The notes beneath the pieces are model-generated. The model had not been told where the DNA came from. It searched no databases and saw only the letters and a list, made by a program, of their open reading frames with translations. A program made the translations under genes and the position numbers. Source: Candidatus Thorarchaeota archaeon (GTDB lineage: Archaea; Asgardarchaeota; Thorarchaeia; Thorarchaeales; Thorarchaeaceae). Taken from it: a stretch of 12,243 nucleotides of DNA. The DNA lies in contig JBHLRS010000060.1 of assembly GCA_048882325.1 (NCBI GenBank), positions 3,790 to 16,032 of the forward strand, given 5' to 3'. The stretch's first letter is position 1. Every line of letters begins with the position of its first letter. Positions 3,682 through 9,482 of the stretch are shown here, one piece after another.

Positions 3682-4785
3682 CTAATGTTCTTCTAGATCA
3701 TCCAACCAGGTGGAGGTCCTGTCAACAGGTCTGGAAAAGATTGTTCCAACATTTTCAGAATTCTTCGCCTGATGGTATTTGAAGAAGAACTTCTCATCAT
3801 TCATACCAAGAATCTCAACCTTCCCGGTTGGGTGTGACATGATGAACCGAAATCTCTTGGTGTGCCCATCAAGTTTCTTTCTGGTTTCCTGGATTATTCT
3901 ACATCCATCATATAGTGGAACCTGGAAATGTTTCTTGACGCGTTTGACTGGTCTGCATTGAAACACATAGTAGGGAATGATACCAATTCGAACTAGGTTT
4001 CTCTGTAGTTGAGTCATGATGCTTGAATCATCATTTACCCCTCTTAGAAGAACAGTCTGATTACTGATGGTAATTCCTATATCTTGGAGTCTGTTACAAG
4101 CTTTGGTGGACTCTTCAGTAATCTCTCGTGGATGGTTGAACTGTGTGACCACATATAGACGTGTTTTGTTGGTGTAGGACTCGAGCATTTCCACAAATCT
4201 GTGGTCTGATAAGATTCTCTTTGGAAATGTGACTGGTACTCTGGTTCCAAATCTAATGAAATCGAGGTGATCTATCTCTGTTAGTGCGGTCAAAAACTCC
4301 TCTATCCGATCATTAGACAAGACAAATGGGTCTCCTCCAGTAATGAGGACATTGTTGATTTCTCTGTGACCTTGAATATAGTCTTTTACAGGTTGAATAT
4401 CCTGAACGACCTCGTTGTTGTCAACACCAACTAATCGCTTTCTGAAACAATGTCTACAGTACATTGCACACTCATTTGTAGACAATATCACAGCTGTTTG
4501 CTCATATTTGTGTTGAAGACCCGGAAGTACGGTATTATACTTCTCACCACTTGTATCGTAACTACCTTCTAGATAACTCTCATGGGATAGAGGTATTGAT
4601 AGTCTTCTAATAGGGTCCTCTTCATCACTCGCGTCGATCAAAGAGAGATAATATTTGGAAATTCTAAGTGGGTGATCTTGACAGATTTCTTCCAAGATTG
4701 CTTTGTCTTTTTCATTTACAACCAAATATTCTGCTAAATCATCAACTGTCGATATGCTATCTTCCAGAACTGCTTCCCAACTCAT
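3682..4785 (-). CDS. kamA: KamA-family radical SAM protein (lysine/glutamate 2,3-aminomutase-like)
   Basis: Motifs PGLQHKY, CAMYCRHCFRKR (CxxxCxxC), ITGGDP, RFGTRVP, NQTVLLRGVND, PYYVFQC, and a candidate PLP lysine in HPTGK. The substrate cannot be assigned. Confidence 0.9.
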   Translation of the reverse strand: MSWEAVLEDSISTVDDLAEYLVVNEKDKAILEEICQDHPLRISKYYLSLIDASDEEDPIRRLSIPLSHESYLEGSYDTSGEKYNTVLPGLQHKYEQTAVILSTNECAMYCRHCFRKRLVGVDNNEVVQDIQPVKDYIQGHREINNVLITGGDPFVLSNDRIEEFLTALTEIDHLDFIRFGTRVPVTFPKRILSDHRFVEMLESYTNKTRLYVVTQFNHPREITEESTKACNRLQDIGITISNQTVLLRGVNDDSSIMTQLQRNLVRIGIIPYYVFQCRPVKRVKKHFQVPLYDGCRIIQETRKKLDGHTKRFRFIMSHPTGKVEILGMNDEKFFFKYHQAKNSENVGTIFSRPVDRTSTWLDDLEEH

Positions 4786-5622: not shown

Positions 5623-6285
5623 ATGAAATCAAAAGACGAACAGATTAAGAAAGCCGTTGTTGATACGTTGTACTGGGACAGTCGTGTTGATGCCTCAGAC
5701 ATTGATGTCGAAGTGACTGACGGAGAAGTCACATTGAGAGGAACTGTTCCAAGTTATGCAGTGAAAGAAGCCGCACTCTTTGACGCTTGGAAGATACCTG
5801 GAGTAAAGAAGGTTAACAACAACTCCTTTGTCAGATTCCCAACTACTGCAAAGACCCTGAGTGATTCAGATATTGAAACGAGTATCACAAAACAGCTAGG
5901 GTGGAATGATAGTACAAGAAATGAGAACATCCATGTCAAGGTGAAGAAAGGAGAAGTGATTCTAGAGGGACATGTTGATGCATATTGGAAATTGTTCAGA
6001 GCACAACAGATTGCATCTGACGTGATGGGTGTTGTTGATATTGAGAACAAGTTGACGGTTGTTCCTACAGAAACAGTAGCTGACCAAGTTATTGCTACAA
6101 GTATCATGAATGCAATCGATCGTAGTTATGCAGTGAACTCTGATGATGTAGATGTGAAGACGAAAGATGGTATCGTCACACTTTCTGGGAAACTCTCAAC
6201 TCGTGCTGCATGTGAGGCCGCTCTAGAGTGTGCGTATAATACCTATGGGGTAAAGGATGTTAAAGATCGATTACATATCGAATAA
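5623..6285 (+). CDS. BON-domain protein (three BON repeats, OsmY-like, no signal peptide)
   Basis: Three repeats of D-x-x-I...I-x-V-x-V-x-x-G-x-V-x-L-x-G...A-x-x-x-x-GV-x-x-V/I: GEVTLRGTV/IPGVKKV, GEVILEGHV/VMGVVDI and GIVTLSGKL/TYGVKDV. Confidence 0.92.
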   Translation: MKSKDEQIKKAVVDTLYWDSRVDASDIDVEVTDGEVTLRGTVPSYAVKEAALFDAWKIPGVKKVNNNSFVRFPTTAKTLSDSDIETSITKQLGWNDSTRNENIHVKVKKGEVILEGHVDAYWKLFRAQQIASDVMGVVDIENKLTVVPTETVADQVIATSIMNAIDRSYAVNSDDVDVKTKDGIVTLSGKLSTRAACEAALECAYNTYGVKDVKDRLHIE

Positions 6286-6293
6286 TCGCAACT

Positions 6294-6314
6294 GAAGCAG
6301 ATTCTTTCTGCTTC
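6294..6314 (+). terminator. Hairpin downstream of the BON gene (possible terminator)
   Basis: GAAGCAGA-TTCTT-TCTGCTTC forms a perfect 8-bp stem 9 nt after the stop. T-rich sequence follows. Confidence 0.4.
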
Positions 6315-6351
6315 CTATGATATTTTATTCGAAATCAGAAGAGGCGAGATA

Positions 6352-6489
6352 ATGAGTACACGTTCTTACGATTACTGTATGTGTGGTCATATTCGCAAGT
6401 GCCATGATAATTTTGATGGCAAATGTGAGAGATGTGGATGTGATGTGTTTTACAGGAGCATGCGTGTGAAGAATCGACTTGGTAAGTGA
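6352..6489 (+). CDS. 45-aa Cys/His-rich putative zinc-binding microprotein (copy 1)
   Basis: MSTRSYDYCMCGHIRKCHDNFDGKCERCGCDVFYRSMRVKNRLGK*, with a GAGGCG SD-like motif. It is 32/45 identical to copy 2. Confidence 0.85.
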   Translation: MSTRSYDYCMCGHIRKCHDNFDGKCERCGCDVFYRSMRVKNRLGK

Positions 6490-6574
6490 TTCATAGATCT
6501 GATATTACGTTTGCAAGAAACAGGTGTTTGAGGTGCAAAACAAGAAACAGATACGGGATTGTAGATTCTCTCAA

Positions 6575-7456
6575 TCAGAATGACTCATGATACGACTTGA
6601 AGAAATCATCTGGACCTAGTCGTATTGTTTCAATCAAGGTTTCATGTCCCAGGTTTTTATCAATAACCTCAGCCATATGAGCACCTGTAACATACCAGAG
6701 TCTATCTCTGTCACTCATTCTATCAAGTATTTTCCAATCATCCTCTTGTAGAGGACTATCAGCACGGGTTTCTAATTCTGTAAGGATATCGAAATACATT
6801 GAAACTCGTCTTTTTCTTGCTCGATTGTCCATGACCAGCTTGTAATCCCTGTTATTAAGCGCCTTAGCGGATTTTCTTTGCTTCAATGAAGAGTAGACTG
6901 CAAGACCTTCCATGTGGGTGCAATACTTGATTACATCACATAATTGACTGGTCCGATTGAGTTGAGAGAGATCAAACATTGGGTTGTATGCAGTATAGAC
7001 TACATGGTGAAGTTCGTGCATTGACATGAAAAGAATTTCTTGTGGATTCTTGTGAAAATCATTATGTCCCAGATTTATCAGAGCATCACCTTCAGACACT
7101 ATTCCTATATCGTATCCAAGGATGACATACAGGACACTTCTTAGGTTGGTGCCTTCAGGGAAATGACTCCACAGTTCTTTGAGAGACTTGTTGAAAGTTT
7201 TCGTTTCATTGTGAATGAATGTCAAGCTGGCCTTCACATGGTCTATCAGATTTGTATCCTTAGATAGTTGCTTCAGAATATGTTTCCAGAATAGGCTGAT
7301 GTTTTTACTTGTTTTTCGAGTTCTTAGTGCGTGAGCATGTGTCTTTATCGCAGCTTCATGATTAGTTATCTCAATCAAAGTGTCCTTGTTTGGATGAGAG
7401 AGATATTGTAATATTGGCACAACAAATGATGTATCGATTCTTACTGACAATGACAT
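6575..7456 (-). CDS. Putative Zn-dependent metalloprotease (gluzincin HExxH...E; DUF5700-like)
   Basis: HELHH motif, a downstream EGLA third-ligand motif and a WYVTGAHMA segment. Confidence 0.75.
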   Translation of the reverse strand: MSLSVRIDTSFVVPILQYLSHPNKDTLIEITNHEAAIKTHAHALRTRKTSKNISLFWKHILKQLSKDTNLIDHVKASLTFIHNETKTFNKSLKELWSHFPEGTNLRSVLYVILGYDIGIVSEGDALINLGHNDFHKNPQEILFMSMHELHHVVYTAYNPMFDLSQLNRTSQLCDVIKYCTHMEGLAVYSSLKQRKSAKALNNRDYKLVMDNRARKRRVSMYFDILTELETRADSPLQEDDWKILDRMSDRDRLWYVTGAHMAEVIDKNLGHETLIETIRLGPDDFFKSYHESF

Positions 7457-7856
7457 GAGTTAATCACTCGTTTTCAAAAAAGATAATGAGTATCCACCGA
7501 GTTGAGTCTGTAGTCATCATTAACTAGTACTTTGAAAGGTACTTTATGAGTTGAGGACCAATCTATAATTATCTTCTGATTTGCCTTAAAATCAAGAGTA
7601 CTTATGTTGAGTAGGATGGATTTGGACTGGTGAAAATGACCCCGAAAAGACTTGCAAGTCCGATGAATCCCCAGGTTTATTAAGCTAGGCGAAAATCTCA
7701 ACCTGTTGAAAGTAAAAAGGAAGAAAAAGTTCCACACTGAATGTATTACAACCAGAACTCTTTGATCTGGTCTATCGATTACCTGTCTTTCCAAGTGCGC
7801 ATTCAAAAATGGCAATGTGCTGTTCCTTTTCTTCGTAAGCTAGCAGAGGTGAAAAT

Positions 7857-7994
7857 ATGAGTACACGTTCTTATGACCACTGTTCGTGTGGCCACATTCG
7901 TGAACGCCATGACAATTTCGATGGCGAATGCGAAAAATGTAGTTGTGATGTGTTTCGCAGAAGCATACGAATAAAGAATTATCTACCAGATTGA
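7857..7994 (+). CDS. 45-aa Cys/His-rich putative zinc-binding microprotein (copy 2)
   Basis: MSTRSYDHCSCGHIRERHDNFDGECEKCSCDVFRRSIRIKNYLPD*, with SD GAGGTGAAAAT-ATG. It is a paralog of 6352-6489. Confidence 0.85.
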   Translation: MSTRSYDHCSCGHIRERHDNFDGECEKCSCDVFRRSIRIKNYLPD

Positions 7995-8346: not shown

Positions 8347-9297
8347 ATGACGAATGTCGTTAGAGCTAGAAAAAAAACTGCAAACAAACGAAGAGTTTGT
8401 GTGAACTGCGGAGAAACTTCGTTCACAGAAGATTATGTCCGGGGAGAGAGTACCTGTACTTCATGTGGACTTGTTGTATCAGAGCGTACTACTGATCAAG
8501 GACCAGAATGGAGAGCATTCACCATGGAAGAAAGGAATGCAAGAGCTAGAACAGGTGCACCAATGACTCTCACTATGGCTGATAGGGGTCTTTCAACAAT
8601 GATTGATTGGCGAAATAAGGATGCAAGCGGTAAGGCAATTACAAGCAACGCACGTGCAGCCATCTATAGAATGCGAAAATGGCATATTAGAAGTAGGCTC
8701 CATAGCTCTCAGCACAGGAATCTTAGTATTGCGATGAGCGAGATGGAAAGACTCTCCTCACAACTTGGAGTCCCGAGGGATGTCAGAGAAACTGCAGCTT
8801 TGATGTACAGAAAAGCTCTATCAAAGAGACTTGTGAGAGGAAGAAGTATTGAATCAGTTGTTGCCGCATCCGTCTACCTTGCTTGTCGGATTCATAGGAT
8901 TCCGAGAAGACTCGATGAGATTGTAACTGAATCTAATGTAGATAGGAAGAAGATAGGTCATGCAGTTCGTTTGATTGTTTCTCGAGTCAATATCGATGTG
9001 CCTTTAGCTTCTGCAAAGGACCTAATACCTAGACTGTCATCAGACCTTCATCTTGAAGGCAGAACTGTGAAGAAAGCTACTGAAATAATCAAGAACGCTG
9101 AAGAAAGATTCGTTACAATTGGGAAAGACCCTGGAGGAATCGCGGGAGCTGCACTCTACATAGCTGGAATAATAGAAGAAGACAGGCGTACTCAGAGGGA
9201 GATAGCCCATGTTTCTCGAGTCACAGAAGTGACAATTCGTAATCGTTACAAGGAACTAGTTCGCGTTCTCGGAATCTCAATCAATGTCAATTCCTAG
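8347..9297 (+). CDS. tfb: Transcription initiation factor IIB (archaeal TFB)
   Basis: Zn ribbon CVNC...CTSCG, B-reader DQGPEWRAF, two cyclin repeats (RGRSIESVVAAS, GKDPGGIAGAALYIA) and C-terminal HTH TQREIAHVSRVTEVTIRNRYKEL. GGAGG SD upstream. Confidence 0.97.
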   Translation: MTNVVRARKKTANKRRVCVNCGETSFTEDYVRGESTCTSCGLVVSERTTDQGPEWRAFTMEERNARARTGAPMTLTMADRGLSTMIDWRNKDASGKAITSNARAAIYRMRKWHIRSRLHSSQHRNLSIAMSEMERLSSQLGVPRDVRETAALMYRKALSKRLVRGRSIESVVAASVYLACRIHRIPRRLDEIVTESNVDRKKIGHAVRLIVSRVNIDVPLASAKDLIPRLSSDLHLEGRTVKKATEIIKNAEERFVTIGKDPGGIAGAALYIAGIIEEDRRTQREIAHVSRVTEVTIRNRYKELVRVLGISINVNS

Positions 9298-9344: not shown

Positions 9345-9482
9345 TGGTCGGGACGGCCGGATTTGAACCGGCAACCGATGGATCTCTCCAGACAACGACC
9401 GAAGCGGTTGCCCACTACAGTCCATTGCTCTGCCAGATTTCCCAGAGATCGTCGAAACGACACTCTTTTGAGCTACGTCCCG
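9345..9482 (-). tRNA. tRNA-Tyr(GUA) with two introns (about 9438-9467 in the D-loop; 9384-9414 at 37/38) and encoded CCA
   Basis: Spliced form CGGGACG TA GCTC AATCTGGCA GAGC A ATGGA CTGTAGA TCCAT CGGTT GCCGG TTCAAAT CCGGC CGTCCCG A CCA is 77 nt with all stems paired. C1:G72 and A73 are Tyr identity elements. The anticodon is at 9418-9416. Confidence 0.95.

Follow-up and report, generated by a model that had tools for sequence, protein, structure and literature searches.

Conserved Cys/His microproteins and a coupled partner gene in one family of Thorarchaeota

The 12,243-nucleotide (nt) stretch of Candidatus Thorarchaeota DNA analysed here (the window; assembly GCA_048882325.1, contig JBHLRS010000060.1, positions 3,790 to 16,032) carries two 138-nt open reading frames (ORFs) on the same strand, each encoding a Cys/His-rich microprotein of 45 amino acids (aa). 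Both belong to a microprotein family restricted to a single GTDB family of Thorarchaeota, a lineage of Asgard archaea. A partner ORF followed by the microprotein gene, in a coupled two-gene cassette, was shown to be the ancestral and commonest arrangement of this family. The two window copies are duplicates that lost the partner, yet they are under purifying selection. The family is an uncurated variant of the theme of small archaeal zinc-binding microproteins, distinguished by a seven-ligand signature, by its coupled partner and by a candidate connection to an accessory transcription factor B (TFB).

Coding status and range of the microproteins

The two genes and the Shine-Dalgarno (SD) motifs that precede them are as follows.

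6352..6489, plus strand: microprotein copy 1 (P0001), 45 aa, 67 nt 3' of a BON gene
7857..7994, plus strand: microprotein copy 2 (P0002), 45 aa, a typical window-type member
6341..6347, plus strand: SD-like GAGGCGA, 4 nt before the ATG of copy 1
7846..7852, plus strand: SD GAGGTGA, 4 nt before the ATG of copy 2

An earlier, sequence-only reading of the window had drawn attention to this pair, counting 32 identical residues of 45 and 12 identical codons that differ only synonymously. Both the coordinates and the counts were reproduced, as was the Cys5His2 pattern C-x-C-G-H-x4-H-x6-C-x2-C-x-C-x2-F in both proteins. The two genes are identical at 103 of 138 nt, with 11, 5 and 19 differences at codon positions 1, 2 and 3, respectively, and the Nei-Gojobori method gave a dN of 0.20, a dS of 1.41 and an omega of 0.14 (Fisher p 8e-6). 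The remaining two forward frames of both copies are stop-rich and closed. Identity in the flanks is approximately random (25/60 upstream and 13/60 downstream), and the likeness of the two copies is therefore limited to their coding parts. SD motifs are present in front of both, as had been claimed; the similar upstream sequence that had also been described came down to the SD-like GAGG(C/T)GA. The exact sequences of P0001 and P0002 were absent from a collection of 15 billion proteins, indicating that the genes are uncalled in this assembly, and orthologues in other assemblies are annotated as 'hypothetical protein'.

The genus of the window genome contains SMTZ1-45, and 27 genomes of this genus were examined. 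A tblastn search with P0001, the check that the earlier reading had proposed, recovered intact open frames in 24 of the 27. A profile built from 26 sequences (A1) was then searched against 85 genomes of the GTDB family and about 315 other Asgard genomes. The family was found in 34 of the 85, in genera g1, g3, g7 and g33, and there were no credible matches among the approximately 315 others. Eleven positions are invariant in the 26 sequences (D7, C9, C11, G12, H13, R15, H18, C25, C28, C30 and F33); these positions, in an ORF of 39-69 aa, define the family, and both window proteins carry all of them. When distant matches were included, for a total of 60 sequences, C9, C11, C25 and C30 remained invariant and G12, H13, R15, H18, C28 and F33 were conserved in at least 90%. 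The archaeal clade has its own N-terminus, MSTRSYD. The basic tail, which had been singled out as a feature of the pair, varies in length across the family and is not a conserved property of it.

The purifying selection deduced from the window pair extended to the family, with a median omega of 0.15 in 210 pairs and a codon-position entropy of 0.37/0.38/1.00. More than 50 intact homologous ORFs are known. P0001 is the most divergent window-type paralogue (H8Y, R17C, E24K, H34Y) and has an extra Cys, Cys17, that is not conserved in the family; the omega of its gene against relatives is 0.08-0.31. P0002 is identical at 35 of 40 residues to the same-position orthologues in genomes G008, G022 and G021, and the orthologue pairs with an estimable dS gave an omega of 0.10-0.30. 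The SD of copy 2 is invariant in a four-species alignment of the intergenic region.

Genomic contexts were compared over 6 kb on each side of 30 loci, and clustering of the neighbouring ORFs yielded three syntenic paralogue groups, A, B and C. Group A, the window type, has TFB, BON, thioredoxin-reductase-like (TrxR-like), radical SAM and DUF5700 genes as neighbours. Group B lies between a DUF72 gene and an eL13-like gene, with PfkB and a TRAPP-like gene next in line, and includes the third copy of this genome (C13:70112-70231). Group C (L055-L060, e.g. L056:568-756) encodes proteins of 55-63 aa with an N-terminus of their own, and always lies upstream of a Cys/Met-metabolism pyridoxal-phosphate (PLP) enzyme. 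By hand count, GGTGA stands about 4-8 nt 5' of the ATG in 20 of the 22 genes of groups A and B; the SD of copy 1 is a one-base variant, one of two such among the 22. Group C genes have a conserved TTTAATATA box about 25-30 nt 5' of the ATG; a conserved AGTTTAATATAGTTAAT box was likewise recorded about 25-30 nt 5' of the ATG, with no SD. With such a box and no SD, the group C genes look leaderless. Collectively, these comparisons lend good support to the view that both window ORFs are real, translated genes under purifying selection.

Two members of the family appear to be decaying, at L040:3364-3510 (G022:C20) and L059 (G011:C25:599-700). The G022 orthologue of the 6352 copy carries C9W and H13Y; its near-identical counterpart among metagenome proteins, P0094, remains intact. 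From the G011 copy, the N-terminus and C25 are missing.

A coupled partner gene

A second conserved ORF, of 47-69 aa, was found 5' of the microprotein gene in group B, in most of group A and at the copies of genera g3, g7 and g33. Its consensus is MEKMKINSK.GY.RNRV.NGHGPHR.LEM.QQ, in which M1, E2, S8, Y12, G20, P23, H24 and M29 are invariant. The stop codon of this partner lies -4 to +6 nt from the ATG of the microprotein in 14 of 18 loci and 48-50 nt from it in the other 4, and all three relative frames of the two ORFs occur. Short spacing combined with all three frames is a signature of translational coupling between two separate genes.

The partner ORF has an omega of 0.20, and its phyletic range is that of the microprotein: 38 of the 85 genomes of the GTDB family and none of the approximately 315 elsewhere. 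Tallied by coordinates, the partner immediately precedes the microprotein gene at 31 of about 50 loci; the loci without it belong mostly to group C and to the window sub-lineage. In-frame fusions of partner and microprotein were present among metagenome proteins (P0011, P0012 and P0016). Searches of the partner against Pfam, NCBIfam and PDB gave no match.

This genome (G000) has one complete cassette, on contig C13, with the following partner.

G000:C13:70241-70381 (L046:6130-6270), minus strand: partner ORF of 47 aa (MEKLKINSK...GYGPH...LEM), coupled to the third CxCGH copy

Neither window copy has the partner in front of it, nor do their orthologues in G008, G021 and G022.

The Cys/His core and its relatives

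The core of about 25 residues, D-x-C-x-C-G-H-x-R-x2-H-x6-C-x2-C-x-C-x2-F, is well supported as a compact, putatively metal-binding Cys5His2 module. Judged from their spacing, C9/C11 and C25/C28 would make up a Cys4 pair of zinc-ribbon-type knuckles that holds one metal, and H13, H18 and C30 would provide an additional three-ligand half-site. This half-site could be completed by a fourth ligand, supplied by the same chain (D7) or by a partner, or else through a Cys that bridges the two metals of a cluster. AF2 models were of low confidence, with a pLDDT of 56.7 from 26 sequences and 54.5 from 60.

The closest resemblance of the knuckle pair was to the zinc-binding domain (ZBD) of the bacterial RNA polymerase beta' subunit (E. 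coli RpoC C70, C72, C85 and C88). Shared features are the string C-x-C-G-(K/H)-x-(K/R)...H...G-x(1-2)-C-E-K-C-x-x-(E/D)-V, a distance of 12-13 residues between the knuckles and a basic character; where the ligand pattern of the domain, CxC(G)...CxxC(G), has about 12 residues between its halves, the microprotein has 13. BLASTP aligned residues 9-38 of P0002 with residues 70-98 of E. coli beta' (rpoC) at a pairwise E of 0.002, pairing C9/C11/H18/C25/C28 with beta' C70/C72/H80/C85/C88 and matching the CEKC motif identically. The A1 hidden Markov model of the family aligned to beta' 69-100, and 1 of 2959 composition-preserving shuffles scored as high or higher. In a Foldseek search with the poor model (pLDDT ~57), the top rows were bacterial beta' chains, at an E of about 1 and with 41-44% identity over 27 columns. 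Alignment of the family with beta' by hhalign gave a probability of 0.5%, and beta' was not matched at E<=10 in a PDB profile search. Unlike the ZBD, the microprotein is free-standing and has three extra invariant ligands, H13, H18 and C30. The A' subunit of archaeal RNA polymerase uses N-terminal zinc sites different from those of beta'. Thus, in its ligands the microprotein looks like a CxCG...CxxC zinc knuckle pair of the beta' ZBD type, and the comparison falls short of homology or a common fold.

Among archaeal proteins, the family resembles Haloferax HVO_2753 and HVO_2901 and Halobacterium Brz, which are stand-alone proteins of <70 aa organized around Cys knuckles. Archaeal zinc-finger microproteins are often regulatory. 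Proteins of the HVO_2753/HVO_2901 type contain C(P)XCG pairs, whereas this family has CxCGH and CxxCxC, two His and seven ligands. The window proteins did not match the HVO_2753/HVO_2901 models in NCBIfam or Pfam, and one distant member matched NCBIfam HVO_2901 weakly (E 0.019).

No curated Pfam or NCBIfam family covers the motif. Consistent with the earlier reading, which could assign no family, scans of the window proteins and of the 60 aligned members against Pfam, NCBIfam, PHROG and PADLOC returned nothing above threshold. The only curated profile matched repeatedly was PF14753 (FAM221A/B, eukaryotic), to which 14 of the 60 members aligned over profile positions ~104-136, spanning the whole Cys/His core. 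All scores were far under the gathering threshold (best E 0.0097; P0002 at 12 bits and E 0.16, for a threshold of 25 bits), and the match is a lead only. We presume that FAM221A holds CxCGH-type repeats. The microprotein loci did not emerge when this genome was searched with PF14753. The best match in that search, to the Cys-rich N-terminus of a PLP-enzyme-like ORF of about 400 aa that we read as threonine synthase, was dismissed as a chance match. Weak matches to RNA polymerase subunit families were seen in PHROG and NCBIfam. PHROG 17060 matched a two-repeat relative at E 1e-4, and the window proteins reached PHROG 17060, 6114 and 19145 only at E 0.03-0.15.

PDB sequence searches with profiles A1 and A4 returned nothing relevant. 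Searches for homologous proteins with a single window protein, or for homologues within longer proteins, found none, and a search for near homologues with A2 gave 19 small hypothetical proteins. A 392-aa member of the cluster of P0008 proved to be a membrane protein of the major facilitator superfamily type rather than a fusion. No description of the motif was found in the literature, including under FAM221, polyvalent proteins and Thorarchaeota small zinc-finger proteins.

Scanning 1.84 billion representative proteins with A1 gave 71 matches at E<=1e-3. Those outside Thorarchaeota are small proteins and tandem-repeat proteins with the core C.CGH.R..H-x6-8-C..C.C..F. A strict back-translated DNA pattern occurred at 40 places among 185,579 GTDB species; about 30 of these are labelled Thorarchaeota/Promethearchaeota, and the remainder are scattered bacteria, one Bathyarchaeia metagenome-assembled genome (MAG) and one MAG labelled Hermodarchaeota. 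The same pattern matched 13 IMG/VR viral contigs, in ORFs of 34-83 aa and in one InPase-type polyvalent protein of 1607 aa (L100:4059-8879, IMG/VR UViG_3300032342_000022), in which the CxCGH module appears once, near residue 435. Since the motif is found as tandem repeats and within larger proteins, the CxCGH core is an autonomous mini-domain that occurs sporadically in phages and bacteria and has expanded in a single archaeal family. The likeness to viral modules that had been noted earlier was thus partly upheld; the likeness to eukaryotic ones was reduced to the sub-threshold FAM221 matches.

Two alternative readings bear directly on this core. In the first, the microprotein would handle redox reactions or metals, for example as a sensor based on Fe-S or Zn or as a small carrier of electrons or metal, and would be unrelated to transcription, its neighbourhoods being incidental. 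Five Cys and two His invariant within about 25 residues, anaerobic hosts, and a TrxR-like flavoprotein and a radical SAM enzyme near several window-type loci are all consistent with such a function. The invariant Arg15 and Phe33 and the basic FHRGMR-type segment are a better fit to a structural binding module, which is also favoured by the repeats, by the phage polyvalent protein and by the CxCG...CxxC spacing of structural zinc ribbons, and no redox partner is consistently linked. We therefore consider a redox or metal-handling role unlikely.

In the second, the module derives from a virus or mobile element, where it served in host takeover or anti-defence, and became fixed in Thorarchaeaceae, the window copies being remnants. 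Along with the 13 viral contigs and the polyvalent protein, this origin is suggested by the ESM Atlas, in which the nearest clusters are 88-100% viral, and by a weak half-motif match to AcrVIA2 (E 0.66). The ESM Atlas returned unnamed viral clusters only and no named cluster. Small phage proteins and polyvalent modules of PHROG 17060, 6114 and 19145 share the strict motif C.CGH.R..H-x6-C..C.C..F; the archaeal side differs from them in its MSTRSYD N-terminus and its partner ORF. Archaeal copies occupy three stable syntenic chromosomal contexts in many species and are under purifying selection, neither an integrase nor a viral gene was found among the window ORFs scanned against Pfam, PADLOC gave no relevant match, and a tblastn search of 50,697 phage records gave zero matches. 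On balance, a viral origin seems slightly less probable still than a redox or metal-handling role.

Neighbouring genes and possible function

Pfam content of the window includes a TFB, a triple-BON protein, a radical SAM enzyme and a TrxR-like gene. The first of these lies closely downstream of copy 2.

8347..9297, plus strand: TFB-x, an accessory TFB paralogue with Pfam TFIIB repeats and a Zn ribbon, 353 nt 3' of copy 2

This genome has at least 4 full TFB genes. TFBs located <=1.5 kb from group A microproteins are orthologues of the window TFB and share 75-91% identity with it, compared with 50-66% for the other TFBs of this genome. Orthologues of TFB-x at >=72% identity occur in genera g1 and g3 only; elsewhere the best match is a 'main' TFB at 64-69%. 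TFB-x is the most recurrent neighbour of window-type microproteins, and at least three gene orders were seen. The microprotein precedes TFB-x in the window and in G008, partner and microprotein precede it in G015, and TFB-x precedes partner and microprotein in G023, G024 and most g3 genomes. In G021 and G022, a TrxR-like gene stands between the microprotein and the TFB. Adjacency that persists through rearrangement is suggestive of a functional tie and makes TFB-x a candidate functional partner of the window-type microproteins.

TFB-x adjoins DUF5700 in G018, G019 and G003, with no microprotein in between. An Rfam tRNA match at 9348-9482 on the minus strand covers 135 nt for a model of 71 positions, consistent with an intron-containing tRNA.

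We propose that the microprotein would act as a small metal-stabilised adaptor that binds protein or nucleic acid. The function of the window-type paralogues would most likely be connected with the neighbouring accessory TFB, and they may modulate transcription initiation in a lineage-specific way. Taken as a whole, an explanation that combines expressed paralogous genes, restriction to one family, a metal-binding core, an adaptor function and DUF5700 as a bystander has, in our judgement, an even chance of being correct. The link to transcription is a tentative part of it, possible but rather doubtful.

Several points weigh against this explanation. Expression, metal binding and interactions are all deduced from sequence, as are the fold and the ligand assignment, which come from spacing alone, the AF2 models being of low confidence. 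In these anaerobes, seven conserved ligands would also be compatible with an Fe-S cluster. The beta' resemblance lies below significance at database scale by hhalign, PDB search and Foldseek alike. TFB adjacency is found in only about half of the group A loci, and because these genomes are closely related, much of it could be due to shared synteny. In genera g7 and g33 the cassette occurs without TFB-x, and the other two paralogue groups lie in contexts unrelated to TFB (DUF72/eL13-like/PfkB and the Cys/Met PLP enzyme).

A more elaborate form of the adaptor model can be drawn, in which partner and microprotein would form a heterodimeric two-metal module, with the invariant His of the partner completing the H13/H18/C30 site. 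This module would serve as a dedicated cofactor of TFB-x, and phage host-takeover proteins, and possibly FAM221 and the beta' ZBD, would contain the same mini-domain. We regard this extended form as improbable; if true, it would add to the Asgard transcription initiation machinery a lineage-specific component that was not known before.

Three further features of the window lie close to the microprotein genes.

6575..7456, minus strand: DUF5700 putative Zn peptidase with an HELHH motif (Pfam E 1.9e-19)
5623..6285, plus strand: triple-BON-domain gene, upstream of copy 1
3682-4785: radical SAM gene, 1.6-3 kb from the microproteins in the window

The HExxH protease that had been seen between the two copies was identified as DUF5700, and the microproteins had been suggested to be cysteine-switch inhibitors or substrates of it. 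As such, or as its partners, they would be expected to remain with the protease. They are its immediate neighbours in the window, and the microprotein is divergent from DUF5700, across a spacer of about 400 nt, there and in G008, G021 and G022. DUF5700 adjoins the microprotein only in these four genomes, the most closely related ones, and is 2.5 kb from it in G009. The two are on separate contigs in at least 6 genomes of the genus (G002, G003, G005, G010, G015 and G027), and DUF5700 was not found in at least 11 microprotein carriers (G004, G006, G007, G011, G013, G014, G017, G020, G023, G024 and G025), so that the protease is off-contig or not found in at least 17 microprotein-carrying genomes. 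Totals for the genus are 12 of 27 genomes with DUF5700 and 22-24 of 27 with the microprotein. In G018 and G019, DUF5700 and TFB-x are divergent neighbours about 450 nt apart, compared with 891 nt in the window. The window arrangement with its microprotein does not fit into the shorter gap, and no microprotein match lay on these contigs; G019 gave no confident microprotein match, and G018 gave a marginal match only, on another contig. Groups B and C are never near DUF5700, and DUF5700 is also present in genera that lack the microprotein. Because neither adjacency nor co-occurrence is conserved across the genus, the link to the protease reflects local synteny. DUF5700 is thus a bystander rather than part of the system, and a role of the microproteins as its inhibitors, substrates or partners is rejected as very improbable. 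The result removes a protease-inhibitor story that was tempting but unsupported.

The bracketing of DUF5700 by two copies is the outcome of local rearrangement. In G022, a copy at the same distance of 67 nt 3' of a BON gene is the positional orthologue of the 6352 copy, with a mean column identity of 86% over 281 columns spanning the BON 3' end, the spacer and the microprotein gene, and G008 has no room for a copy at the equivalent position. Between the BON stop and the 6352 gene, a 7-bp inverted repeat (GAAGCAG...CTGCTTC, 6294-6314) is followed by a T-rich stretch; the repeat is kept in G022 and might form a hairpin for termination or processing.

Upstream of DUF5700, the 400-nt spacer has a mean column identity of 74% overall. 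Within it, the approximately 130 nt directly 5' of the DUF5700 start (7457-7600) are markedly more conserved across the four species, and a long hairpin predicted there hardly varies among them. Rfam gave no match for this region. A 113-aa TTG ORF at 7474-7815 on the minus strand is interrupted by stops in relatives and is not conserved as a gene. The 7457-7600 segment looks like a conserved leader or regulatory element, not a gene.

Less probable again than a protease partner, and likewise rejected from the distribution and position of the genes, is a precursor of a ribosomally synthesized and post-translationally modified peptide (RiPP) that the neighbouring radical SAM enzyme would process. 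The microproteins are rich in Cys, a radical SAM gene lies near the microprotein in the window, G008, G021 and G022, and two members had weak matches to sactipeptide families (E 0.025); most loci are without a radical SAM gene, conservation extends across the whole peptide, and neither a leader/core architecture nor a peptidase/transporter set was found. Finally, chance ORFs or a non-coding repeat, which their shortness and their absence from the annotation might suggest, are excluded by the low omega, the third-position variation, the closed alternative frames, the conserved SD and the intact homologues.

Annotation of Asgard MAGs routinely misses microproteins, and here two conserved genes were left uncalled. 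A Pfam-type model of the seven-ligand Cys/His mini-domain could annotate many orphan ORFs. The partner ORF and the adjacency to TFB together offer a testable lead to lineage-specific transcription regulation in the archaea closest to eukaryotes.

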